This document shows positions 5,911 through 58,682 of a DNA stretch of 64,000 nt, piece by piece. Source of the DNA: Candidatus Melainabacteria bacterium (GTDB taxonomy: Bacteria > Cyanobacteriota > Vampirovibrionia > LMEP-6097). The notes below the pieces were generated by a model, which saw only the letters and a list, made by a program, of their open reading frames with translations, made no database searches and was not told the DNA's origin. The translations under genes were made by a program, and so were the position numbers. The stretch lies in assembly GCA_018695135.1 (NCBI GenBank), contig JABHOV010000059.1, positions 12,133-76,132 on the forward strand. Reading direction: 5' to 3'. The first letter of the stretch is position 1, and the number at the start of each line of letters is the position of its first letter.

Positions 5911-6032
5911 CCACCCACGTTGAGCCTTGCACTTCTTAACAGATAATTGCACTTTGATATACAGACTCCACCTTGACTTTGTCTGCGGGCATGCAATTAT
6001 CTGTTAAGAAGTGCAAGGCTCAACGTGGGTGG
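5911..6032. repeat. 122-bp perfect palindromic element, 41-bp arms with termini CCACCCACGTTGAGCCTT / AAGGCTCAACGTGGGTGG (family 4, copy A)
   Basis: Arms 5911-5951 and 5992-6032 are exact reverse complements. Confidence 0.9.
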
Positions 6033-11285: not shown

Positions 11286-11439
11286 GGCTTAAGCATAAAC
11301 CTGTGAATGATAGCTGTCAAAAACCAATAGGTACATACGTTATATTCTCAGGGAAAGCTTTTTGAACTGATAGTCTGCAAAGGCTTATGGAGAGAGGATG
11401 AATTTAACGGAGCTATTGTTTAATTGCTTAATAGGATTA

Positions 11440-11560
11440 AACCGGTTTTTATTAGAGATCCTGCAAAACTTTGTTTTGCTAGTGATGTCGACACAAAAAA
11501 GTTTGGAACGGTGCGAAGCGCTAGTTCCTGGAGTGAAGAGGATGGGCTTTTTTACAATAA
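11440..11560. repeat. Family 1 structured repeat, intergenic copy (core CCTGCAAAAC-TTT-GTTTTGCTAGTGATGTCGACA..GGAACGGTGCGAAGCGCTAGTTCC)
   Basis: Shares a ~70-nt core with copies at 14545-14665 and 58255-58370. Confidence 0.85.
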
Positions 11561-11899
11561 GTCTAATGAAATGGAGCAAGGCTTTGCCGTCTCCTCGTTT
11601 GAACCGTATTAAAATAAATAAATCCAGTCAAAAACAATATCAATATGTTTTAGGAGAATTTATTTTGCTGAAGACAAAGTATCAGGTTTGGACAAAAGCG
11701 TTAGACAAAAAGATTGAAAAGCCCAAAGAGATTTTTGAAGTTAAGATCTTAGATTAGCTTTATTTAATTTAAATGAGGTAGATGTTTTGCTTTAGTACAA
11801 GGCGCAAGTCGCCTGAAGAACCGGAGTTATGTGAGCCCATAATGAGGATTCTGAAGACGGCGAAGTAACGCAGTAATAAAGTGAAACGGCACCGGAATT

Positions 11900-13769: not shown

Positions 13770-14987
13770 ATGGATAGAAATGGACAAAGATTGGACAATG
13801 TCATCAGCCTTGATCTAAAGCTACAAGGTTTGATTAGTTCTAAATTAAAAAACATTGATCAGTTTAATCTAACTTGGTCAGAATTCGAGTTGAAGGAATC
13901 ACAAGAGTTTTTGCGTGAACTTAAAGAGCTTTCTACTATTCAGAGTATTGGTTCTTCTACGAGAATTGAGGGTTCTAAATTACAAGATGATGAAATTAAA
14001 ACCTTGATCGATAATTTAGATATTAATAAGCTTAAGTCGCGTGATGAAGAGGAAGTGAGCGGCTATTATGAAGCTCTTGATTTGATCTACGAAAATCATG
14101 AGAATTTATTTTTGAGTGAATCATATATAAAGCAATTGCATGCAATTTCGCTTAAGTATAGTTCAAAGGATACTCGCCACCGAGGAGATTATAAATCATT
14201 GTCTAATAAAGTGGTTGCTCAGTATCCTGATGGAAGTTCCAGGGTCGTTTTTGATACTACTGAGCCATACCTAGTGGCAAAAGAGATGACTGATTTGATT
14301 GATTGGTCTAATGAAAGACTTTCATATTCTGGGATTCATTCCTTGATGGTGATAGCTGTTTTTGTTTATGAGTTTCTTTCTATTCACCCTTTTCAAGATG
14401 GCAATGGCCGTTTGTCTCGCTTACTGACCAACTTGTTAATGATGAAGTCAGGTTATAAGTTTGTTCAATATATTTCTTTTGAGCATGTGATTGAACAAAG
14501 AAAAAAAGAATACTATCAAAATCTAATGGAGGCTCAGTCTCAGCGGTTTACGAGACACCCTGCAAAACATGGTTTTGCTAGTGATGTCGACATAAATAAG
14601 GTCGGAACTGTGCGAAGCGCCAGTTCCGCTAATGAAGAGGCGGAGGGCTTTCATGTGAACTGTGCCGCAAGGGAAGATCTTGGCATGTGGATGGTATATT
14701 TCTTAGATTGTGTTGAAAACCTAATCTCAAAACTTAAAACTAAGTTGCACACAAATGATGATCATTGTTTAGATGATTCTGGAGTAAATTTAAGTTCAAC
14801 TCAGAAACAAATCTACACTTTGATCAGCACGAATAAGTCTAGTAAAGTTGAGGATCTGATGAAAGTTTTTCCTGAGATAACGAGACCGACTATTAAATAT
14901 AGTTTGTCGAGGCTTGTTGAGCTTGGTTTAATCAGTCGCCATGGAAGAGGGCGAGGGACTTGGTACCAGACCGCTAAAGCTTACTAA
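13770..14987 (+). CDS. Fic family protein (AMPylase/Doc-like) with N-terminal inhibitory motif STRIEG and C-terminal winged HTH; carries in-frame family-1 repeat
   Basis: HPFQDGNGRLSRLL Fic motif; (S/T)xxxE(G/N) motif near the N-terminus. Confidence 0.85.
   Translation: MDRNGQRLDNVISLDLKLQGLISSKLKNIDQFNLTWSEFELKESQEFLRELKELSTIQSIGSSTRIEGSKLQDDEIKTLIDNLDINKLKSRDEEEVSGYYEALDLIYENHENLFLSESYIKQLHAISLKYSSKDTRHRGDYKSLSNKVVAQYPDGSSRVVFDTTEPYLVAKEMTDLIDWSNERLSYSGIHSLMVIAVFVYEFLSIHPFQDGNGRLSRLLTNLLMMKSGYKFVQYISFEHVIEQRKKEYYQNLMEAQSQRFTRHPAKHGFASDVDINKVGTVRSASSANEEAEGFHVNCAAREDLGMWMVYFLDCVENLISKLKTKLHTNDDHCLDDSGVNLSSTQKQIYTLISTNKSSKVEDLMKVFPEITRPTIKYSLSRLVELGLISRHGRGRGTWYQTAKAY
14545..14665. repeat. 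Family 1 structured repeat inserted in frame in the Fic ORF (encodes ..RHPAKHGFASDVDINKVGTVRSASSANEEAEGF..)
   Basis: Nucleotide identity to copies at 11460-11528 and 58266-58345. Confidence 0.85.
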
Positions 14988-16284: not shown

Positions 16285-16307
16285 TGTGCTGTTTTAATTA
16301 TACCCAT

Positions 16308-16397
16308 TGGGGTCGTATCCTGACATTGGACATTTCTACGGGTTAGGTATTATCACCTTGTTATTAGTTCAAAATGTCCAATGTCAGGATACGACCC
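16308..16397. repeat. Family 2 palindromic element: 26-bp arms GGGTCGTATCCTGACATTGGACATTT / reverse complement around a ~36-nt unique loop
   Basis: Exact inverted repeat; same arms at 47237-47325 and 54184-54276. Confidence 0.9.
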
Positions 16398-16451
16398 TGA
16401 TGGGTCATATGGACTATCTAGATATCCCAGTTAAAGCCGATTAACTATTAT

Positions 16452-19944: not shown

Positions 19945-20127
19945 ATGCTCCCCTTTGGTATCGGTATCCCTGAACTTATAGTTATCTTAGTGATAGCACT
20001 AATTATATTTGGGCCTAAAAAGCTTCCTGAGCTTGGCAAAAACCTTGGCAAGGGCTTGAAGAGCTTCAAGTCTGGTATGGAAGAAGCAACCGACGAATTT
20101 AAATCTGAAGTCAAAGATTCTGACTGA
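19945..20127 (+). CDS. tatA: Twin-arginine translocase subunit TatA/E
   Basis: [25 protein letters not shown]. Confidence 0.85.
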
Positions 20128-20130
20128 AAA

Positions 20131-20171
20131 GTCCCATCTGCTGTGTTACATCTTTTCGTCGTATTACGGGG
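20131..20171. repeat. Family 6 short repeat (reverse orientation of CCCCGTAATACGAYGAAAAGAYGTAACRCAGCAG)
   Basis: ~36/41 identity with 29619-29659. Confidence 0.7.
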
Positions 20172-20186
20172 TATTAAACAAGGATC

Positions 20187-27300: not shown

Positions 27301-28146
27301 TTGATCCGAGGGACTATACTTAATAGTACTTTGTTTAGGTATTTTGGGTTGATTTTGTTTTTGAGTTTGGCATCTGTCCAGGCTAAGCCATATTTGCCTG
27401 CTGATACTGAAGTGCTGGCACAAATCAATTCTTCTAAGAAGCTCAAGAAACTTAATGCAAGTTTGAAACAGGATCCAAACAATATTGATTTGGCTTATTT
27501 GCTTGCAAAGCAATATATTGCATTAGGCAAGGCCCAGGGGGACCCTCGTTACTATAGTTACGCTACGGCGAGCTTGGCTCCTTGGGCTAAGCAGAAAAAA
27601 AGTCCTCCGAGTATTAAATTATTGCTTGCTGATATAAAACAATATCAACACCGATTTAATGAAGCTTTGGAATTATTGGATGCGATTTTATTAGCGGAGT
27701 CAAATTATCAAGAAGCAATTTTGATGCGTGCTGCAATTTATACTGAGCTTGGTAAGTATTCGCGTTCTGATGATGACTGCCGCCAGCTTAAAGACCGTAG
27801 TCTTGAAACAACTTGTTTGGCTTTGAATAAGTTCCACAATGGCTATCCAGCAGAGGCTTATGATGATCTGCGGGACTTGAGTTTTGGTGATGATCAAGCT
27901 AGTCTTTGGTCACTTACTATCCTAGCTGAAATCACGGCACGCTTGGCAAAAACTGTAGAGGCTGAACGATATTATCAACAAGCACTTGCGATTAATAATA
28001 GTGATATTTATTTGCTTGGATCCTATGCTGATTTTCTTTTGGATCAAGCAGAGAATCAAGCGGTGATTGATTTACTGGAAGGGATGGAAGAGGTAGAGAG
28101 TTTGGCTTTGCGTTATAGGATGGCTCAAGGGGTGAATCATGATTAG
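27301..28146 (+). CDS. Secreted TPR-repeat protein
   Basis: Signal peptide; several 34-residue A/Y/L-patterned repeats. Confidence 0.65.
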   Translation: MIRGTILNSTLFRYFGLILFLSLASVQAKPYLPADTEVLAQINSSKKLKKLNASLKQDPNNIDLAYLLAKQYIALGKAQGDPRYYSYATASLAPWAKQKKSPPSIKLLLADIKQYQHRFNEALELLDAILLAESNYQEAILMRAAIYTELGKYSRSDDDCRQLKDRSLETTCLALNKFHNGYPAEAYDDLRDLSFGDDQASLWSLTILAEITARLAKTVEAERYYQQALAINNSDIYLLGSYADFLLDQAENQAVIDLLEGMEEVESLALRYRMAQGVNHD

Positions 28147-29374
28147 TTTAGTACTGGACTTCCTGCGCAAGTTTCGTTTTGCAGGATGTCTGCTGTTCTT
28201 GGTTTTGTTTGTGCTACCGGCGCAAGCACATAAGCCAAGCGAAAGTTTTTTGAAAATCCAAGCTGCTAGTCAAGCAATAACTATTGAGTGGGATGTTGCA
28301 ATTAGAGATTTGGATTATTTGATTGATTTGGATCTGAATAATGATTCTGAGATTAGTGGATTTGAATTTAAAAATCAAGAACAGAAGATCAGAGACTATT
28401 TGTTTTCACAAATTAAACTAGAGGCTTTTTCGAAGCCTGAATCAGTAGCTGCTCATCATCATGCGCATAGTCATGTTCATTCGTCTTCAGCTCATCACCA
28501 CGCGACTGGCTTGAAGAAATGGATAGGAGCTTATTGTAAGAGATCAGAGCAAGTTGACTTGTTGGTAGAAAAACATAGTGAGCTTAGTTATGTTGTTTTA
28601 TTGTTTGATTATCAATGTAGGCTTGAGCTTGATAAATTAAGCGTCGATTATAATTTACTGTTTGATGCTGACCCCGAACATAGGGCTTTAGTGAGTTTGG
28701 ATTATGACGGCAAGGTTCAAAGCTATGCCTTGACCAAAGATCAGCGGTATTTTAAAGCGAAGCTAGGCAATGTTGATTATAAATATCAGTTCTTGAATTT
28801 CTTAGATCAGGGGAAATGGCATATTTGGACTGGTTATGATCATATATTGTTTTTGCTTGCACTTTTATTGCCAGCTGTATTCGTTACAGGTAAAGGGAAG
28901 AAGAGAGAAGTAACTTTGAAATCAGTTTTTTGGACTGTTGTAAAAATAGTTACAGCATTTACAGTTGCACATTCCATTACTCTGTCTCTGGCAGCTTTAG
29001 AGATTGTTGAAGTTAATTCTCGCTTGGTTGAAATTTTAATTGCTTTGTCTGTTGCCTTCAGCGCTTTATTGAATTTAGTCCCTCGATCCCTTTTCTCTCT
29101 TCCCGTTACCCTTCTCCCTTTTTGTTTTGGTTTAATTCATGGCTTCGGTTTTGCTGGAGCTTTGCAAGATATTGGCTTGCCCTTGAAGGCTTTATTAGTT
29201 TCTTTGTTTAGCTTTAATCTTGGAGTGGAGCTTGGGCAGCTTGCAATTGTCGCTTGCTTTGTACCCATTGCCTATTGGCTTAGAGACACCTGGTTCTATC
29301 AGGTTATTGTTTTTAGGCTTGGTTCGCTTGCTATATTTGTGATGGCGATGTGGTGGTTTTTTGAGCGGTTATAG
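28139..29374 (+). CDS. HupE/UreJ-family membrane protein with periplasmic His-rich segment (AAHHHAHSHVHSSSAHHHATG)
   Basis: C-terminal TM region with HGFGFAG motif; signal peptide; overlaps upstream TPR gene. Confidence 0.6.
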   Translation: MISLVLDFLRKFRFAGCLLFLVLFVLPAQAHKPSESFLKIQAASQAITIEWDVAIRDLDYLIDLDLNNDSEISGFEFKNQEQKIRDYLFSQIKLEAFSKPESVAAHHHAHSHVHSSSAHHHATGLKKWIGAYCKRSEQVDLLVEKHSELSYVVLLFDYQCRLELDKLSVDYNLLFDADPEHRALVSLDYDGKVQSYALTKDQRYFKAKLGNVDYKYQFLNFLDQGKWHIWTGYDHILFLLALLLPAVFVTGKGKKREVTLKSVFWTVVKIVTAFTVAHSITLSLAALEIVEVNSRLVEILIALSVAFSALLNLVPRSLFSLPVTLLPFCFGLIHGFGFAGALQDIGLPLKALLVSLFSFNLGVELGQLAIVACFVPIAYWLRDTWFYQVIVFRLGSLAIFVMAMWWFFERL

Positions 29375-29575: not shown

Positions 29576-29618
29576 CAGGGTTGTTGAATACGCATAGTTT
29601 AGACAAGCCGAACTGATA

Positions 29619-29659
29619 CCCCGTAATACGATGAAAAGACGTAACGCAGCAGCTGGGGC
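29619..29659. repeat. Family 6 short repeat CCCCGTAATACGATGAAAAGACGTAACGCAGCAGCTGGGGC
   Basis: Near-identical to reverse complement of 20131-20171. Confidence 0.7.
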
Positions 29660-29672
29660 TTTGCAAGCAGAT

Positions 29673-31162: not shown

Positions 31163-31352
31163 CCACCCACGTTGAGCCTTCAGATAAGATCCCACCCGCT
31201 GCGTGACATACGCCACTTTTAAGATAAATCGTCTACACAATGGTATTTCTCTGTTGAGTCAGTTTTAGATATCATTTATCTTAAAAGTGGCGTATGTCAC
31301 GCAGCGGGTGGGATCTTATCTCAAAAAGTGGTAAAGGTTGAGACGTGGGTGG
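31163..31352. repeat. Family 4 palindromic element, copy B (~190 bp): termini CCACCCACGTTGAGCCTT / AAGGTTGAGACGTGGGTGG, 49-bp inner inverted repeat
   Basis: Read in sequence; shares 18-bp termini with 5911-6032. Confidence 0.85.
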
Positions 31353-34380: not shown

Positions 34381-34445
34381 GATTTTTGACATCCTTATTG
34401 ACGGCTCAGTCAACTCCGGTGTCAAAAATCTCCTCAGCCTTGTCT
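34381..34445. repeat. Family 5 repeat with nested inverted repeat GATTTTTGACA..TGTCAAAAATC
   Basis: Core ATTGACGGCTCAGTCAACTC shared with 58027-58046. Confidence 0.65.
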
Positions 34446-34472
34446 TTGAGAAAATTATCACCATCGCTTAGT

Positions 34473-35663
34473 ATGCTACTTCAATCTTCTTATTACTGTT
34501 TTCTCGCTTTCATCGCGTCAAGCTTTTTTAGTCCGACAGCTAGAACTATTTTCTTAGTTGCTGGATTGCTTTTGTGGGCTATTGCGTCGTGGCGAGAGCC
34601 AACAACATTTGCGTCAATCCAAGCTGGTCTTAGTAAGGACTTACAAGTATTAAACAGGCTGTTCATTATATATATTTGTGTCAATTCTGTTCTTGCGTAT
34701 ATGCATGACTTGAGTATTTTTGCCTGGATCAAAACATTGCTGGGTACTTATGCTCAATGGTTTTGGGCACTTGCTTTATTGGCTGGTCTCAAGTTTGATT
34801 TTCAAAACAAAATCAGGTTAACTGTAATTGGAGTATCATCATTTACTAGTGTGCTGATCGTGTTGCAGCTGATTGGTTTAGTACCGATGGTTGGAGATTA
34901 TTATGGAGTTTTGTCTCAGGCTTTTACTAGTTCTGGGATGATTTTGGTTGGTTTGTTTTTGAGCTTGGCTCAGTTTAAATCTATTCCTTCTACTAATAGA
35001 CTTACTGAGAAAGCCCCCTTTACTAATGGAACTAGTGCGCCGCACCGTTCCGACAATTACCGCTTTGCTTTTGGACTAGCCTCTTTTGTGCAACTGATCG
35101 CATTATTCGCTCTAGGACAGCGTTCTGTCTGGGCAGGTTTGATTTTGTCTCTATTGTTTTATTTGATTATGACTAAGCAATATCTCAAAAAGAGTTTTTG
35201 GCTTGCCTTGGTTCTTTTGATACTAACTGGCAGTTTTGTGATTTCAAGTTCTGAGCGTGTCGGTCGTAAAGTTGAGCGTTTTGCAAATCCTCATTATTGG
35301 ACTCAGGCTAACAGTATTAAAGTCAGACAAGAACTGTGGCAGATTAATAAAGAGGCGTGGCAAGCTAAGCCATTGACCGGAATTAATGAAATCATTAAGC
35401 ATGAGGGATTGAGGCATGCACACAATATTTATTTCCAGCAACTTTATACTGGTGGCTGGCTTAGATTTATTGCTTGGTTGAGTTTTTATTTAGTCGCGGG
35501 ATTCTTTTTGTTTCGTCGAATTACAACAGCGCCTGAGTTTTTTGCTATCTATATTGCGCTGAGTGCAGAAGGAGTTTTGGAGAATTGGTGGGGAGATAGC
35601 GAGGTTCTGAGCTTGTTTTTAGTGGCTTTGATATTGGGATTGGGGAAGAAATATAAGGAATAG
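34473..35663 (+). CDS. O-antigen ligase (WaaL/Wzy_C) family membrane protein; start moved past the repeat
   Basis: ~10 TM helices and AHNIYFQQL motif in periplasmic loop. Confidence 0.5.
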   Translation: MLLQSSYYCFLAFIASSFFSPTARTIFLVAGLLLWAIASWREPTTFASIQAGLSKDLQVLNRLFIIYICVNSVLAYMHDLSIFAWIKTLLGTYAQWFWALALLAGLKFDFQNKIRLTVIGVSSFTSVLIVLQLIGLVPMVGDYYGVLSQAFTSSGMILVGLFLSLAQFKSIPSTNRLTEKAPFTNGTSAPHRSDNYRFAFGLASFVQLIALFALGQRSVWAGLILSLLFYLIMTKQYLKKSFWLALVLLILTGSFVISSSERVGRKVERFANPHYWTQANSIKVRQELWQINKEAWQAKPLTGINEIIKHEGLRHAHNIYFQQLYTGGWLRFIAWLSFYLVAGFFLFRRITTAPEFFAIYIALSAEGVLENWWGDSEVLSLFLVALILGLGKKYKE

Positions 35664-38376: not shown

Positions 38377-39414
38377 ATGCGTTACCTCTGCTTGATTCTA
38401 TTATTGTTTAGCTCTTCTGCTTGTTCTAAAAAAGCTGCCCCGGTTGCTGCCGTAAAACCATTATTTGTCAAAGCAGAAGCTGCAACTACCGGTGATATAG
38501 AGCGTGCCTTTGAAACGGCTGGTGAACTGAAAGCGGATAAAGAGATTTTGGTTGCAGCTGAGCGGCCGGGGATGGTCAAAGAGATTTATGTGCGTGAAGG
38601 ACAATGGGTTAAGGCAGGTCAGGCTTTGATTCAAATAGAGGGTAAGGATGTTGATGCTGATTTAAAAAAAGCACAAAGTGATTTTGCTTCTTACCAAAAC
38701 CTGTTTGATCAGGGAGCTATTTCTAAACAAGAACTAATTAATTATGAAGCTCAACTGCGTAGAGTCGAGTCACAGATTGATAATCTCCAGATTAATGCAA
38801 TTAGTTCTGGATTTATTGGGGTGATATATGTTGATCCTGGTGACTATGTTAAACGAGGTGATAAGATTCTGGATTTGGTTAAGATTTATCCATTGAGAGT
38901 GAGTTATTCGGTGCCAGAGAAATTGATCTCCAAAATTTTAATTGGACAAAGCGTAGAACTACGTACTGACTCAGAAGCTGGCAAGGTTTTTAATGCAAGT
39001 GTTGATTTTATTTCACCAAGAGTTGATCCTAATACTAGAGCGGTTTTAGTTCGCGGGAAAATCAATAGCCCAAGTACTAATCTCAAAGCTAATCAGTTTG
39101 TTACTGTCAAACAAGTTATTAATAGTTCTAATACGACTTTATTGGTGAGAGAAGAAGCGCTCTATCTTAATCAAGGACAGGAGTATTTGTATCTCGCGTC
39201 GTCATTGCGAGCCGAGGCGAAGCAAGCTAATGTAGAGACTCCGGAGATCGACGCGTCTGATGAACTTGTAGCCAAACGTGTAGCTGTAAAAACCGGTCAG
39301 AGACAAGAAGGCATGGTAGAAATTTTAGAAGGTATTGAAGCTGGTGACAATGTGATCTATGCTGGTTTGCATAGTATTTATCCTGGGGCTAAGTTGGTTT
39401 TGGTTAGTGACTAA
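38377..39414 (+). CDS. RND efflux periplasmic adaptor (membrane fusion protein), lipoprotein; contains family-3 repeat fragment
   Basis: Lipobox SSSAC, coiled-coil hairpin, lipoyl and beta-barrel segments. Confidence 0.8.
   Translation: MRYLCLILLLFSSSACSKKAAPVAAVKPLFVKAEAATTGDIERAFETAGELKADKEILVAAERPGMVKEIYVREGQWVKAGQALIQIEGKDVDADLKKAQSDFASYQNLFDQGAISKQELINYEAQLRRVESQIDNLQINAISSGFIGVIYVDPGDYVKRGDKILDLVKIYPLRVSYSVPEKLISKILIGQSVELRTDSEAGKVFNASVDFISPRVDPNTRAVLVRGKINSPSTNLKANQFVTVKQVINSSNTTLLVREEALYLNQGQEYLYLASSLRAEAKQANVETPEIDASDELVAKRVAVKTGQRQEGMVEILEGIEAGDNVIYAGLHSIYPGAKLVLVSD
39193..39260. repeat. Family 3 repeat fragment inside adaptor ORF (..TCGCGTCGTCATTGCGAGCCGAGGCGAAGCAAGCTAATG..CGACGCG)
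   Basis: Left arm near-identical to 51136-51167. Confidence 0.75.
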
Positions 39415-45661: not shown

Positions 45662-47236
45662 ATGTCTAATTTTCGTTATCGCAGCATACAAATACTCATT
45701 GCTTTAGCATTTCTTGCTATCTTGGGACGTTTATTTCAATTTCAAATTCTTAATGGGCAAAAATATTCTGCTTACATTAAGCGCTATGGACAGACCTACA
45801 AAATTAGTCCTGCAAGAGCAGAGATTGTTGATCGTAACGACAAAGTACTTGCTTTGGATTTGATGAAATATACACTTGAATATAATCCCGTGACTACTAG
45901 TGAGGATAGAGGCATGCTTGCTTTCAAACTAGAGCAAATGATTGATTTGAAAGATCCAGAAGATCTCAATGCTAGTTATAGTAAGACTCTTGCGCATGGT
46001 TTGAGTCGCGAACAGGCAAACAAAATTAGGAAGCTTGATTCCAAATTATTATACTTGCGTCAAGTTAGGCGCAGATTTTATCCACAAGATGAGCTGGCTT
46101 CTCATGTGCTTGGCTATGTTGATCTTTATGGACAAGCAAGGCAAGGTATTGAAGCTGACTATCAAAAGAGATTAGAAGAAGACTCAGAGAACAAGCTTAG
46201 ATTGAGCTTGGATTCTCGCTTGCAAGTTTTTGCCGAAACAGAATTAAAGAAGCGAATTGCTGAAACGAAGGCGGCAAGAGGGACTGTTTTGTTAATGGAA
46301 GTTGCTACTGGACAAATGATGGCAATGGCTACTAGCCCAGGATTCAATCCTAATAACTATTTTGATTTTAGTTTGTCACAAATTAAAAACTGGCCTTTGG
46401 TTGATGTCTATCAACCGGGTTCTATTTTTAAGATAGTGACAGTGGCATCTGCCCTAGAGTCTGGGACTATAGATTTGAGTCATCGTTTTGTAGATGAAGG
46501 CTTTTTGGAGATTGATAAATGGAAAATCAAAAATCATGAATACAAACTAGGTAAGACTGAGGCTGAGGAATTGAATCTGCAAAACTTGTTTGAACGATCA
46601 AGTAATACTTTTGCTGCACATCTGGCACTAGCAATGGGTCCTAAGGTTTTTCATGATCAGATTAGCAAGTTTGGCTTTGGGCAAAAAACGGGGATCGAAT
46701 TAAGTGGGGAGTCCAAGGGTATTTTGCTTAAGCACAAAAAATGGCGTAAGTCCGATACTGCAACTACAGGCATGGGTCATGGTGCCATTTCTGTTACTCC
46801 GTTACAGTTGCTGGCAGCAGCTAATGTCATTGCCAATGACGGTCATTGGGCTAGACCGACTTTGTTTCTTGATTCTAAACAGCCGTTGGCTGAAGAGCTT
46901 GAACCAATTATCAGTGCTGAGCATGCTTATAGTATTAGAAATCTTTTGGCAAGAGCCATTGATCACAATTTGAAATTCAAATCTAGCGTGGCTGGACGTG
47001 TTGATAATTTGACGATAGCTGGTAAAACTGGCACAGCAGAGAAAATCAAAGCAGGTGGAGGCTACTCCAAAAAAGAAACAGTCGCTTCTTTCTTAGGTTT
47101 CTTCCCGGCTTATAATCCAAAATATATCGCCTTAGTTGTAATTGATGATCCCAAGACTGATGGTCGTTGGGGTGATACTGTGGCTGGACCTTTGTTTAAC
47201 AAGATTGCTGCTTACACTAGAGACTTGTATTTATAA
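45662..47236 (+). CDS. Penicillin-binding protein, FtsI/PBP2-type transpeptidase
   Basis: N-terminal TM anchor, SIFK (SxxK), KTGTAE. Confidence 0.85.
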   Translation: MSNFRYRSIQILIALAFLAILGRLFQFQILNGQKYSAYIKRYGQTYKISPARAEIVDRNDKVLALDLMKYTLEYNPVTTSEDRGMLAFKLEQMIDLKDPEDLNASYSKTLAHGLSREQANKIRKLDSKLLYLRQVRRRFYPQDELASHVLGYVDLYGQARQGIEADYQKRLEEDSENKLRLSLDSRLQVFAETELKKRIAETKAARGTVLLMEVATGQMMAMATSPGFNPNNYFDFSLSQIKNWPLVDVYQPGSIFKIVTVASALESGTIDLSHRFVDEGFLEIDKWKIKNHEYKLGKTEAEELNLQNLFERSSNTFAAHLALAMGPKVFHDQISKFGFGQKTGIELSGESKGILLKHKKWRKSDTATTGMGHGAISVTPLQLLAAANVIANDGHWARPTLFLDSKQPLAEELEPIISAEHAYSIRNLLARAIDHNLKFKSSVAGRVDNLTIAGKTGTAEKIKAGGGYSKKETVASFLGFFPAYNPKYIALVVIDDPKTDGRWGDTVAGPLFNKIAAYTRDLYL

Positions 47237-47325
47237 GGGTCGTATCCTGTCATCTGACATTTCAATGTATTACAAACGATCTTAATTAGTGATACACTGA
47301 AATGTCAGATGACAGGATACGACCC
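47237..47325. repeat. Family 2 palindromic element, variant arms GGGTCGTATCCTGTCATCTGACATTT with three compensatory changes in the partner arm
   Basis: Both arms read in sequence. Confidence 0.9.
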
Positions 47326-47871
47326 TGTTTGGCGCAGGAAATCTTCATGTGCATTTTTATTGGTGTAGTTGGTAACGCGCAAATAAGCTGACCAAGGTAT
47401 TTGATTTTCGCTTGCAACTTTGGCTATACCGTAGAGCTCCATGTTTTCTATAATTGCGTCTGTTTGATAATGTTTAATAATTTGTTTGGAGATAGTCTCG
47501 TCTTGAGTGATTTCAAGACTTGAGAGGCATAAAATATTCTTTGAATCTGGATGACTGGCGTGAAGAATAGGATAAATATCTTTGATAGTGTAGCTAAGTC
47601 CTTGAACTGATCCGAGATTTAAAAGAGCTGCAGCACTAACTATGATTTGCTCGCCAATCTTGATATTTTGGCTATAGGCACCGGCTGTGCCAGTAAAGAT
47701 GATTTCGGAGATATCGTTTCTTGATTGAAGTAGTTTAGAGAGATTGACAGCTGCTTCAAGATAGCCAATGCCAAGTACCTCTAAAATATGGGTTTTACTG
47801 GTTAAATAGGGCAAATCCGCTGGATTCTCTGCTAGTTCGTTTTTGCAGGCTGCGCAAATAAGGCTTGTCAT
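47305..47871 (-). CDS. PNP/MTAN-family nucleosidase, possible futalosine hydrolase MqnB
   Basis: Short 188-aa MTAN-like layout (..IIFTGTAGAY..). Confidence 0.55.
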   Translation of the reverse strand: MTSLICAACKNELAENPADLPYLTSKTHILEVLGIGYLEAAVNLSKLLQSRNDISEIIFTGTAGAYSQNIKIGEQIIVSAAALLNLGSVQGLSYTIKDIYPILHASHPDSKNILCLSSLEITQDETISKQIIKHYQTDAIIENMELYGIAKVASENQIPWSAYLRVTNYTNKNAHEDFLRQTGSYPVI

Positions 47872-49189: not shown

Positions 49190-50052
49190 CCTACTTGATT
49201 GAAGCTGATGACTTGGTTGCAACAGTGCCTGGGACTTTGACATTGAAAGATTTGGATAGTGATTTAATTCAACAGTGTTTAATTTCTACTTTGCTTGCTC
49301 CAGCTCATTATACAATTGCACAAATCTTGGCAGAGGATTGGGGACATGACGCTAGGCAGGTTCTGGGACTTGGTTTGAAACATGCCAGTGGCTTGCATAC
49401 CAAAACCGGCGGCAAGGTAATCAAAAATGTATCTGGTTATGATTTGAGTAAAATATATTTAGGTAGTTGCGAATCCTTGGCAAAGATTGAAACAGCAAGT
49501 TTGCGTTTGGAGAAACTACCATTATTGATTTGTGAATTGAGCTTGAAGCTTGAACGAGAACTTGATCTTGACTTGATTGTTTTTTTGCACAAAATAGCGA
49601 CGATGGATTTTGATGAGAGTTTTGATGTGGAATTAAATATGCTCGGTGAGATCAAGTTGAGTTTTACTGCCACAAGTAAAGAACTCATGGCTTTGAAACA
49701 AGCTCGCTTGGCTAGAAGGCTAGAAGGTTTTTGGGATCATGAACTTAGTTTGGATTTTGTGGTACAGCCTTATAAAAAACAATACCCCAGTACTGATTTA
49801 AGGATTGAAATTCATGGAGTTTTGACGACTTTGCTCAATACCGCAAAGTCATTAGGGCAGCCTTGTCAGATCTACCCCAAGAGAGGCTATCTACTGTTAG
49901 AGTCTTCTGTCCAGAATTTAAAAAAGCTAGATGATTGTTACTACTATGTTTATCCCAAGACCGATGAAAACAAAAAACTAGAAACCCAGTTGAACGATAC
50001 TGATAACGCAGAGTTGGATTTATTCAAACAACTCCAAAAGGATTTTGCTTAA
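49186..50052 (+). CDS. GlcE-like FAD-binding subunit lacking the N-terminal part of the FAD_binding_4 domain
   Basis: KTGGKVIKNVSGYDLSKIYLGS motif of glycolate oxidase GlcE; starts where GlcE homologs are ~90 aa in. Confidence 0.55.
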   Translation: MTYLIEADDLVATVPGTLTLKDLDSDLIQQCLISTLLAPAHYTIAQILAEDWGHDARQVLGLGLKHASGLHTKTGGKVIKNVSGYDLSKIYLGSCESLAKIETASLRLEKLPLLICELSLKLERELDLDLIVFLHKIATMDFDESFDVELNMLGEIKLSFTATSKELMALKQARLARRLEGFWDHELSLDFVVQPYKKQYPSTDLRIEIHGVLTTLLNTAKSLGQPCQIYPKRGYLLLESSVQNLKKLDDCYYYVYPKTDENKKLETQLNDTDNAELDLFKQLQKDFA

Positions 50053-51344
50053 TGGACGCAGCGACGATTAATGAAACGATTAAGGCTTGTATTCATTGCG
50101 GTATCTGCCTGCCAGCCTGCCCGACTTATCAGGTAACAGGTAATGAAGGACATTCGCCGCGTGGAAGATTGTACTTAATTAATGATCTCTTGACTAATGA
50201 GACTGGAGCCAGGGAAGATGTCGTTGAGTATTTGGATGGCTGCCTTGAATGCTCCGCCTGTGAAACGGTCTGTCCATCAGGTGTTGACTATGTCAATATT
50301 CTTGAATATGCTCGCCATGAATTGGGTCTGAGCAATTACACTAAGGGCTTTATGGCTGCTGTTAGACGCCTGGTGTTCCAGTATTTATTGCCGAATAGAG
50401 TCTTGTTGAATCTGGCAAGAGTGATGGGGCGTTTTTTGCCTTTGCGGTTATTCAATAAGCTAGCGCCGGGTTTTGATTTTGAATACAAAAAAATCAAGAC
50501 GGATTATATTTATAAATCTCAAAGTCGGACTTCGCGGACAGTCTCCATGCCACTGGGTTGTGTAATGGATACGATTTATAATGATGTGCATTGGGATAGT
50601 ATTCAAGTACTCAACGCTTTTGGTTATGATGTCTATATACCTGAAACTCAGTGCTGCGGTGCTCTTGCTTATCATAGTGGTGAAAACAAACTTGGTGAAA
50701 AACAGCTTGAGGAAACCACGTCGATACTAGCTAAGCATCAGTATCCAGTAGTAATGAACTCAGCGGGTTGTGGGGCTTTTATTAAAAATCATTCTGATTT
50801 AGAATCGATGGATTTAATTGAGGCTTTGAAACAAGCACCGTCATTGCGAGGAGCAGACGCGGCGCGGCAATCTAACGCAGGGGACTGGATTGCCACGCAC
50901 TCTTTGAGTGCTCGCAATGATGAAATAATTTATGCCGTTTACCACCCTGCCTGTCATCTCAATCATAAGCAAGGAGTCTCGCAAGACTATGTTGAATTGT
51001 TGAAAAGAATCCCAAGTTTGGAATTAATACCACTACATGAAGCAGACCTTTGTTGCGGCTCGGCTGGATTTTATAATTTAATTCAAAGCAAGCTTGCTGG
51101 TGAGATTGGTAAACGTAAGGCAGAGAATATTACATCGTCATTGCGAGCGTTAGCGAAGCAATCTAATGCAAGATCCAAGGGCGCGGCAATTAAATTCTCT
51201 GTATTAGATTGCTTCGCTAACGCTCGCAATGACGTGATTGTACTTACTGCAAATCCCGGTTGCATGTCTCAAATCCAAGCTCACTTGGGTGATGAATATC
51301 AAGTTATGCATCCTATTAGTTTGATTAAGCAATACTTGAATTAG
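50052..51344 (+). CDS. glcF: Glycolate oxidase iron-sulfur subunit GlcF-like with two in-frame family-3 repeat insertions
   Basis: Two CxxCxxCxxxCP ferredoxin motifs, two CCG domains. Confidence 0.8.
   Translation: MDAATINETIKACIHCGICLPACPTYQVTGNEGHSPRGRLYLINDLLTNETGAREDVVEYLDGCLECSACETVCPSGVDYVNILEYARHELGLSNYTKGFMAAVRRLVFQYLLPNRVLLNLARVMGRFLPLRLFNKLAPGFDFEYKKIKTDYIYKSQSRTSRTVSMPLGCVMDTIYNDVHWDSIQVLNAFGYDVYIPETQCCGALAYHSGENKLGEKQLEETTSILAKHQYPVVMNSAGCGAFIKNHSDLESMDLIEALKQAPSLRGADAARQSNAGDWIATHSLSARNDEIIYAVYHPACHLNHKQGVSQDYVELLKRIPSLELIPLHEADLCCGSAGFYNLIQSKLAGEIGKRKAENITSSLRALAKQSNARSKGAAIKFSVLDCFANARNDVIVLTANPGCMSQIQAHLGDEYQVMHPISLIKQYLN
50839..50922. repeat. Family 3 palindromic repeat, copy inside GlcF (CGTCATTGCGAG..CTCGCAATGATG)
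   Basis: Arms CATTGCGAG/CTCGCAATG with nested GGCAATC/GATTGCC. Confidence 0.8.
51136..51234. repeat. Family 3 palindromic repeat, full copy: 32-bp perfect arms CGTCATTGCGAGCGTTAGCGAAGCAATCTAAT / ATTAGATTGCTTCGCTAACGCTCGCAATGACG
   Basis: Read in sequence; in frame in GlcF. Confidence 0.9.
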
Positions 51345-54160: not shown

Positions 54161-54183
54161 AGTGAAAAAGATTGTATCACATA

Positions 54184-54276
54184 GGGTCGTATCCTGACAT
54201 TGGACATTTGCTACACTATATATTATCCGCTGGGCAAAGTTATTTAACTAAAATGTCCAATGTCAGGATACGACCC
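54184..54276. repeat. Family 2 palindromic element, third copy
   Basis: Same 26-bp arms as 16308-16397. Confidence 0.9.
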
Positions 54277-54280
54277 TACT

Positions 54281-58109: not shown

Positions 58110-58682
58110 ATGAAAGTACGAAAACTAACAACAGATTACTTCAACCAAGTACATGATCTGATCAAGTTTTATTCTGAGCGTCGTTTGATGTTGCCACTTA
58201 GTCTTGATGAGCTTTATCATAGAGCGCAGGCTTATCGAATTATTGTAGGGGACAGCGATAGACATCCTGCAAAACAAGGTTTTGCTAGTGATGTCGCCAC
58301 AAAAGAGGTCGGAATCATGCGGAGCATGTGTTCCGCTAAGGGAAATGAGTTAGACCTTGGCAAGAAGCCTATGGGGACAGTCCTTGCTTGCGCTCATCTC
58401 GATATTTTTACACCACAACTCGCTGAAATCAAAAGCCTTGCTGTTATTGAAACGGAGCATGGTAAAGGCTATGGTAAGACTTTAGTCATGGATTGTGAGC
58501 AAGATGCCAAGGCTATTGGTATCAAGAAGCTTTTTGTCTTAACTTACCAACAGGATTTTTTTACTAAGCTCGGTTACCAGGTTGTTGATCGTAATACTTT
58601 GCCTGAGAAGGTCTATAAAGAATGCATCAAATGTAGCTATTTCGATGATTGTAATGAAATTGCGATGGTTAAGAGCCTCTAG
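58110..58682 (+). CDS. GNAT family N-acetyltransferase with in-frame family-1 repeat
   Basis: Acetyl-CoA binding ..EHGKGYGKTLV.. motif A. Confidence 0.75.
   Translation: MKVRKLTTDYFNQVHDLIKFYSERRLMLPLSLDELYHRAQAYRIIVGDSDRHPAKQGFASDVATKEVGIMRSMCSAKGNELDLGKKPMGTVLACAHLDIFTPQLAEIKSLAVIETEHGKGYGKTLVMDCEQDAKAIGIKKLFVLTYQQDFFTKLGYQVVDRNTLPEKVYKECIKCSYFDDCNEIAMVKSL
58255..58370. repeat. Family 1 structured repeat inserted in frame in GNAT ORF (encodes ..DRHPAKQGFASDVATKEVGIMRSMCSAKGNELDLGKKPMG..)
   Basis: Core CCTGCAAAAC-AAG-GTTTTGCTAGTGATGTCGCCACAAAAGAGGTCGGAATCATGCGGAGCATGTGTTCC. Confidence 0.85.

Follow-up and report, generated by a model that had tools for sequence, protein, structure and literature searches.

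A 114-nt segment inserted in frame in a Fic-family gene is probably an old, now immobile copy of a non-autonomous DNA transposon, a MITE (miniature inverted-repeat transposable element), that is abundant in marine Melainabacteria-like Cyanobacteriota. The gene (13770–14987, plus strand) lies in a 64,000-nt window of a Candidatus Melainabacteria bacterium (assembly GCA_018695135.1, contig JABHOV010000059.1), and all positions are those of this window unless a locus (L number) is named. The inserted segment occupies 14552–14665 (plus strand), equals 38 codons and consists of one MITE copy with its target duplication. Its evidence is a gap in orthologues and a match to a covariance model built from 33 copies.

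Insertion in the Fic gene

The Fic-family gene encodes 405 aa and was identified from the list of open reading frames (ORFs), its Pfam Fic domain and an AlphaFold2 model. The Fic domain covers aa 115–223, the catalytic HPFQDGNGR motif is intact, and a winged-helix part lies C-terminal of the insert. An NCBI record identical to the window protein is titled 'MAG: Fic family protein [Candidatus Melainabacteria bacterium]', where MAG stands for metagenome-assembled genome.

DNA alignment revealed a single clean 114-nt gap at 14552–14665 in both orthologues, L052 (GCA_028817775.1) and L054. This gap confirms the insertion that a first-pass annotation had placed at 14545–14665 with the frame kept. 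The in-frame addition of a peptide stands as claimed there, while its size, given as about 35 residues, is 38. In an alignment of 12 Fic sequences, all 11 other proteins have a 38-column gap between ...QRFT and REDLG..., and the segment is lineage-specific, as had been proposed. Among the homologues listed, the four nearest Fic relatives have 360–366 aa at 60–69% identity; 113 of the other 115 have 348–368 aa, and the two exceptions have 308 and 385 aa.

The covariance model matches the Fic copy at 14549–14667 with 108.3 bits. With a decayed right end (the 3′ terminal repeat), 83% identity over its first 94 nt to the copy at 11448–11541, and no insert in relatives with 64–69% protein identity, the Fic copy appears old for a MITE copy, yet specific to the lineage of the window host.

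The AlphaFold2 model was built with 79 homologues and has a mean predicted local distance difference test (pLDDT) score of 87.4. Residues 257–304 are coil, with pLDDT <50 at 268–297, and are flanked by confident helices at 245–256 and 305–330. A low-pLDDT coil between confident helices points to a disordered excursion of the loop linking the Fic core with the winged-helix part at the C terminus. This predicted placement agrees with the earlier location of the segment between the catalytic core and the winged helix. The insert is presumably neutral for Fic function.

Copies in the window and in metagenomes

Five copies occur in the window, three full and two partial, and every one lies within an ORF. 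The three full copies score 108–115 bits with the covariance model. The Fic element recurs at 11448–11541 and 58254–58347 with 69–83% identity over 94 nt, and a 31-nt core is identical across the three full copies (chance expectation, 0 matches). Frames are given below as those of the element consensus (F, forward; R, reverse).

A full-length copy at 11450–11568 (plus strand, 115.4 bits, frame F2) lies in a small conserved ORF of 119 aa (11398–11757). The first-pass annotation had called this copy intergenic; it is in fact a 38-aa in-frame insertion. A syntenic 85-aa orthologue (L052:7683–7937) aligns at both ends by BLASTP and lacks exactly 38 residues, and this copy is therefore a third clean in-frame insertion. 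The DNA alignment of the spacer between DoxX and ribonucleotide reductase was too noisy to define an empty site, and the protein comparison was used instead.

The copy reported earlier in a GNAT gene was recovered as a full-length element at 58256–58374 (plus strand, 113 bits, frame F1) within an acetyltransferase ORF with a Pfam GNAT match (58110–58682). Its insert peptide, RHPAKQGFASDVATKEVGIMRSMCSAKGNELDLGKKPM, lies between two predicted beta strands, and the alignment to the solved structure of a short N-acetylglutamate synthase (PDB 5yge) resumes directly after the insert. The insertion is fixed in the population, since an identical 190-aa protein with the insert occurs on 12 contigs from several samples.

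The existence of further genomic copies was also borne out, by two partial copies in the window and by one more full copy (L055) 4 kb to its left. A decayed antisense copy at 34994–35073 (minus strand, 35.7 bits, E 1e-8, frame R1) lies in a membrane-protein ORF with a Pfam Wzy_C match (34386–35663). It keeps hairpin 2 and the right end, has a diverged left half and encodes the R1 peptide ..EKAPFTNGTSAPHRSDN... A 47-nt internally deleted derivative at 28152–28198 (minus strand, frame R2) lies in an ORF with Pfam DUF6702 and HupE_UreJ_2 matches (28139–29374), in the N-terminal hydrophobic region of the HupE/UreJ-like protein. It joins the left and right terminal repeats (CAGACATCCTGCAAAACGAAACTTGCGCAGGAAGTCCA; R2 peptide LDFLRKFRFAGCL), was found by a terminal-repeat match with one mismatch, and scores weakly with the covariance model (8.7 bits). 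Further end-joined deletion derivatives were found at L014/L044. At 28139–28200, the left terminal repeat, on the gene strand, supplies an ATG in frame (GGATGTCTG) close to where the HupE/UreJ-like ORF begins; MITE ends could supply alternative start codons.

Copies were collected with a pattern within hairpin 1. A pattern scan of 185,579 species-representative genomes gave four loci in three MAGs, and one scan of metagenome contigs gave 47 loci, two of which are the window's own copies. L007, L030 and L047 were rejected as chance pattern matches in which the rest of the element is missing. About 40 distinct copies from marine metagenomes remained after duplicates were removed. A related MAG (L059, GCA_027618255.1) has four copies in 20 kb. 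No copy was found in the syntenic relatives L052–L054 by covariance-model search or in viral contigs with two patterns, and there was no blastn match to the element among 72,556 plasmids.

At L024, L028 and L037 (also L012/L036, and P0136 versus P0142), one flank of a MITE copy is common and the other differs. This is either repeat-induced chimeric assembly or recombination between copies, and copy-site counts from short metagenome contigs need care because contigs share only one flank. Single shared flanks at L024, L028 and L037, as in repeat-induced misassembly, are also what would arise if assembly or binning had created a repeat-induced chimera in the MAG. As an account of the insertions such an artefact is hardly credible, because the 405-aa Fic protein is present on four contigs from several sources with the same junctions in L031, the insert-bearing GNAT protein is on 12 contigs from different samples, and reading frames are kept exactly.

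Ends and target duplication

The element consensus is TAGACATCCTGCAAAACnnnGTTTTGCTAGTGATGTCGACACAAAAAAGGTCGGAACGGTGCnnnGCACTAGTTCCGTTAGTAAAGATAAAGGGAACTTTCGCAGGAAGTCTA, 113 nt from TAGAC to GTCTA in nearly all full copies. Element length is 109–113 nt, and the element proper is about 109 nt. It is bounded by imperfect terminal inverted repeats of 12 nt, TAGACATCCTGC and GCAGGAAGTCTA, which agree at 11 of 12 consensus positions. Over the 33 copies, 72% of terminal-repeat cells are complementary, versus 27–39% when the partner is slid by 1–3 columns. Outside MITE copies, the only terminal-repeat match in the fetched loci is the known deleted derivative.

TA-n-TA flanks the element on both sides. 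At 15 of 22 independent sites the left and right flanks share their variable base, versus 7.0 expected by shuffling (p~0.0005), and perfect 5-bp direct repeats occur at five sites, among them the unusual TACTA/TACTA. The flanking TA-n-TA repeat is a target-site duplication of 3 or 5 bp. Whichever length is duplicated, the direct repeats are spaced by 114 nt, which equals the length missing from the orthologues of Fic and of the small ORF. The family has the generic properties of a MITE: small size (<~300 bp), no transposase coding, many dispersed copies, terminal inverted repeats and a target duplication.

No covariation was found in the terminal repeats: 174 of 500 shuffles pair as well or better, and 197 of 500 reach the covariation score. 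A base-paired stem formed by the two repeats was ruled out on this ground. Because they lack covariation, the terminal repeats look like protein-binding ends rather than a stem.

Hairpins

Two hairpins were defined from an RNAalifold consensus fold and pair counts. Hairpin 1 (14554–14588, plus strand) has an outer stem GACAyC/GATGTC, an inner stem (CT)GCAAAAC / GTTTTGC(TAG) and a variable 3-nt loop. Hairpin 2 (14603–14628, plus strand) is CGGAAC-nGTGC-nnn-GCAC-n-GTTCCG, also with a variable 3-nt loop. The first-pass annotation had correctly drawn GCAAAAC-nnn-GTTTTGC and hairpin 2 and had missed the outer stem of hairpin 1.

Helix 1 of hairpin 1 is 98.8% paired. Compensatory changes convert its outer stem from GACATC/GATGTC to GGCATC/GATGCC or GACCTC/GAGGTC. 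In hairpin 2, 97.5% of cells are paired and seven of 11 pairs have changes on both sides, with GGAAC/GTTCC replaced by GGGAC/GTCCC, GGCAAC/GTTGCC or AGAAAC/GTTTCT. Together the hairpins have 26 base pairs, with 98.3% of alignment cells paired and both-side changes in nine pairs. None of 500 shuffles reaches any of the five measures, and pairing falls to 30–44% when the partner is slid by 1–3 columns. The proposed structure thus held up when its copies were checked for covariation. The search pattern covers neither the outer stem of hairpin 1 nor any part of hairpin 2. The Fic copy folded as RNA has a z-score of −3.2, and the consensus folded as DNA one of −3.8. Entropy is 1.54 bits in the 3-nt loops, 0.22 in the stems, 0.40 in the linker and 0.95 in the 3′ part.

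The loops (A3 alignment columns 21–23 and 66–68; 14569–14571 and 14614–14616 in the Fic copy) are hypervariable even between near-identical copies. Loop variants include the reverse-complement pairs AAG/CTT, AGA/TCT and AAA/TTT, and some loop combinations mark subfamilies, such as CCC with GGC or GGT. Kissing-loop complementarity between the two hairpin loops was considered and was not seen in the loop table.

An element of ~78 nt (26 codons), in which the palindromes GACCCATGTTGGGTC and GGGTCTCTTGAGACCC overlap, sits precisely within the hairpin 2 loop at L018 (2250–2342, minus strand), L006 and L013 and in protein P0143, loci with different flanks. It is read through in frame in P0143. Either the hairpin 2 loop is a target for another element, or a composite element moved.

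Covariation in both hairpins is also what would be expected if the element were primarily a regulatory DNA module or a structured RNA with a function of its own, such as an mRNA stabiliser, small RNA or protein-binding site, spread and maintained by the host, with the in-gene copies as by-products. Its fold is more stable than that of shuffled sequence, and intergenic copies adjoin gene starts. Such a module is nevertheless distinctly unlikely as the origin of the family. Rfam 15 gave no match at the gathering threshold for the whole window and none at E≤1 for 14450–14770, and no terminator, terminator-like tail or promoter signal was found in the element. Copies occur in both gene orientations and four reading frames, and sequence varies most in the loops, where recognition normally takes place. 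A role of this kind would also be compatible with a MITE origin.

Mobilisation as single-stranded DNA by a hairpin-recognising Y1/HUH transposase (IS200/IS605-derived or REP/REPIN-RAYT) is unlikely, with a somewhat better claim than a regulatory module. The hairpins would then be the recognition sites and the terminal repeats incidental, which suits the compensatory changes in both hairpins and the lack of covariation at the ends. A repetitive extragenic palindromic (REP) doublet-like family in the same genome and the nesting of a different 78-nt element in the hairpin 2 loop point the same way. However, this class of transposase produces neither a flanking direct repeat, which is supported here, nor terminal inverted repeats, which are clear. 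The two hairpins lie inside the element instead of being subterminal at both ends, are unrelated to each other in sequence, and are not bounded by a GTAG or CGTC tag.

Reading frames and host proteins

Four of the six consensus frames (F1, F2, R1 and R2) have no stops. F1 encodes RHPAKxxFASDVDTKKVGTVxxTSSVSKDKGNFRRKSN, with a grand average of hydropathy (GRAVY) of −1.45, and this hydrophilic peptide is conserved as RHPAK..FASDVDTKKVGTV..SSVSKDKGNFRRKSN. Peptides of F2, R1 and R2 are hydrophobic or contain Cys (GRAVY +0.12 to +0.56).

Open frames of ≥150 codons hold 20 of the 37 distinct sites: 16 in F1, none in F2, two in R1 and two in R2. The four reverse-frame cases may lie upstream of the gene start, since an upstream stop is 8–23 codons away. 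F1 hosts are unrelated enzymes, namely Fic, GNAT, TsaE, an AMP-binding acyl-CoA synthetase-like enzyme and UvrC (L001). The window itself uses all four open frames, with F1 in Fic and GNAT, F2 in the small ORF, R1 in the Wzy_C protein and R2 in the DUF6702 and HupE/UreJ protein. Soluble enzymes carry the hydrophilic frame, and membrane or signal-peptide contexts the hydrophobic ones, so that the reading frame used appears matched to the hydropathy of the host context. This pattern fits a peptide-level filter on survival. Judged from sequence, the insert is presumably translated in its host proteins.

Conservation of the RHPAK..FASDVDTKKVGTV peptide and the use of one frame in 16 of 20 long-ORF copies could be read as signs of a protein module, a peptide motif or linker of 38 residues spread by exon-shuffling-like duplication for use at the protein level. 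That origin is very improbable: nucleotide identity extends to synonymous positions, copies are also found in intergenic DNA and in three other frames with unrelated peptides, and the segment is predicted to be disordered. Among 1.84 billion cluster representatives, a HMMER profile of the peptide matched no more than 15 proteins, and several of these are spurious small ORFs. The count is probably too low, because insert-bearing proteins cluster at 50% identity with insert-free orthologues. A 44-aa profile run against a word-indexed protein database, the index of which requires many shared words, matched only three small spurious ORFs.

Proposed mechanism

As a MITE, the element would be mobilised in trans by a transposase, putatively of the DDE type, that recognises the terminal repeats. 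Insertion would occur at TA-n-TA with duplication of 3–5 bp, each event adding exactly 114 bp or 38 codons. The literature gave no usable link from the length of a target duplication to a transposase family. Because 38 codons are added and four frames are open, insertion into a coding region would keep the frame and leave it unterminated in most phases, giving a 38-residue loop rather than a knockout. Copies would persist where 38 extra residues are tolerated, in Fic within the loop between two helices, and selection would then filter the copies by the peptide they encode.

Several observations weigh against this explanation. The right terminal repeat decays quickly, which counts together with the absence of terminal covariation, and the target duplication could be 3 or 5 bp. 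The fetched loci (212,641 bases to ~0.3 Mb) contained no autonomous element bearing these terminal repeats. Presence/absence polymorphism, a sign of recent mobility, was not seen between near-identical strains. The invariance of columns 14–36 is an ascertainment effect, because these columns are fixed by the hairpin 1 search pattern. Hairpin covariation is superfluous to a simple DDE-transposon model; possible sources are a need in transposition in master lineages, intrastrand quasi-palindrome correction or a role at the RNA level.

Host lineage and range

NCBI names for the window proteins are Candidatus Melainabacteria or Cyanobacteria bacterium. The window RpoA scores 250–258 bits against Firmicutes and cyanobacterial RNA polymerases, versus 177 against that of Escherichia coli. 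The host is not Rickettsia, in line with the non-Rickettsia-like ribosomal gene order noted earlier.

A variant subfamily (RHPAKRSFASDAA...) occurs in three MAGs titled 'uncultured Gammaproteobacteria', and loci L001–L004 are on CAZKAT010000008, CAYQSL010000009, CAZELI010000026 and CAZELI010000018. The named relatives of RecA of the L001 MAG are Cyanobacteriota (81–84% identity) and Obscuribacterales or Vampirovibrionales (~70%). The Gammaproteobacteria label of L001–L004 is probably wrong, as L001 RecA has these relatives and resembles E. coli RecA no more than that of Mycobacterium. As far as the searches reach, the repeat family is confined to one marine Melainabacteria-like clade. In the related MAG GCA_027618255.1, positions 16412–18715 of L059 encode a DnaB helicase with an intein that carries a LAGLIDADG endonuclease domain (Pfam).

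Comparison with known repeats

According to the summaries of Ogata et al. 2000 and 2002 in PMC2229807 and PMC10969869, Rickettsia palindromic elements (RPE-1 to RPE-10) have 105–146 bp, 12-bp terminal repeats and open frames, and 19 of 44 RPE-1 copies are in protein genes. The Fic element resembles them as a small dispersed repeat (114 bp versus 105–146 bp) with terminal inverted repeats of ~12 bp and open frames. In both, near half of the copies lie in frame within unrelated conserved protein genes, where they encode a family-specific peptide at tolerant surface positions, and several repeat families in each genome act in this way. The hosts differ, the window belonging to a marine MAG of free-living type in the Melainabacteria/Cyanobacteriota and RPEs to an obligate intracellular alphaproteobacterium. 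The architecture differs as well: the Fic element has terminal inverted repeats and two local hairpins, whereas an RPE is one long stem-loop or palindrome. A target-duplication signal is present in the Fic element, for which PMC2229807 enters '?' for RPEs.

The first-pass annotation took the toleration of a palindromic element as an extra peptide segment to be a hallmark of RPEs. The RPE-like behaviour stands. Membership of the RPE family does not, given the Melainabacteria host and the different architecture, and the element is not filed as an RPE because its host is not Rickettsia. By analogy, in a comparison with RPEs by description only, the Fic element seems to be like RPEs in behaviour and outside their family. 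The Rfam and plasmid searches showed no similarity to a known repeat.

Classical MITEs (Correia/NEMIS, ERIC, RUP, cyanobacterial Nezha and those of Anabaena) share size, terminal inverted repeats, TA termini, a short target duplication and high copy number with the Fic element. RUP has stops in all six frames, and the parent insertion sequence of Nezha is known and ISNpu3-like (PMC3184786, PMC2229807). ERIC and Anabaena MITEs occasionally form ORF fusions (PMC3184786, PMC2229807), and ORF fusions by MITEs are known in enterobacteria, Anabaena and Coxiella (PMC3184786, PMC5896051). Classical MITEs are mostly intergenic, whereas the Fic element has at least 16 of its 37 sites inside long ORFs and adds a constant length that is divisible by three.

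QMITE1 and QMITE2 of Coxiella burnetii are likewise MITEs that overlap annotated ORFs and encode peptides (PMC5896051). They differ in sequence and length (~190–400 bp), and they overlap functional genes at 3′ ends, whereas Fic-element insertions are internal to conserved domains or linkers. IS1111 inserts into the hairpin-forming QMITE2 (PMC5896051), which parallels the 78-nt insert nested in hairpin 2 of the Fic element.

REP/REPIN sequences are GTAG- or CGTC-tagged palindromes mobilised by RAYT transposases (PMC3733652). They too are dispersed hairpin-forming repeats with maintained stems, and a separate CGTC-tagged doublet family is present in the window. The Fic element is about three times longer than these repeats (20–40 nt), has terminal repeats and a flanking duplication, and its hairpin ends are untagged. 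The literature search found no paper linking MITEs to Melainabacteria. The 114-nt repeat is a MITE family so far undescribed.

Selfish DNA of the RPE type within protein genes has so far been regarded as largely a peculiarity of Rickettsia, and a 2024 review called such insertion elsewhere only 'conceivable' (PMC10969869). The Fic element is a clean example of this type from a distant, uncultured lineage. It also provides an explicit design rule, with 114 bp per insertion, four open frames and a frame choice filtered by hydropathy. Gene callers and homology tools will mis-size proteins of these MAGs, and spurious small ORFs called over intergenic copies were already seen among the profile matches. 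The element is a natural experiment on how protein loops tolerate insertions of 38 residues.

Other repeats in the window

An inverted doublet of a CGTC-tagged unit, CGTCATTGCGAGCGTTAGCGAAGCAATC, lies in frame at 51136–51234 (99 nt, 33 codons) in a GlcF-like ORF (50052–51344). It is located just before the conserved IVLTANPGC, and the NCBIfam GlcF alignment stops there. A single unit at 39200–39227 is read in the same frame (SSLRAEAKQAN) in an RND efflux adaptor ORF (38377–39414). The CGTC-tagged family looks REP/REPIN-like.

A broader and rather doubtful reading is that, beyond obligate intracellular bacteria, the marine Melainabacteria clade offers another 'Rickettsia-like' example, with several unrelated codon-neutral repeat families routinely fixed within conserved proteins. 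The families concerned are the 114-nt MITE, the nested 78-nt element and the 99-nt CGTC-tagged REP doublet in GlcF. If this were true, new protein loops would regularly arise from inserted repeats, and covariation in the hairpins could indicate a new hairpin-dependent mobilisation for elements with terminal repeats and target duplications.

A conserved non-coding block at 11800–11899 aligns with L052 8030–8129 (..AGTACAAGGCGC..GAACCGGAGTT..AATGAGGATTC..AACGCAGTAAT..). It lies just 3′ of the stop of the ribonucleotide-reductase small subunit in an otherwise diverged spacer, and Rfam gave no match to it at the gathering threshold.

At least three further families of long near-perfect palindromes occur in the window, mostly intergenic, with arms of 28–51 nt that are 93–100% complementary. 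One is at 16302–16405, 47236–47326 and 54182–54278, a second at 31179–31324 with half-copies at 20119–20174 and 29616–29671, and a third at 5911–6032. The window genome is unusually rich in MITE-like repeats, and its in-frame repeats suggest a genome-wide habit of this Melainabacteria lineage.

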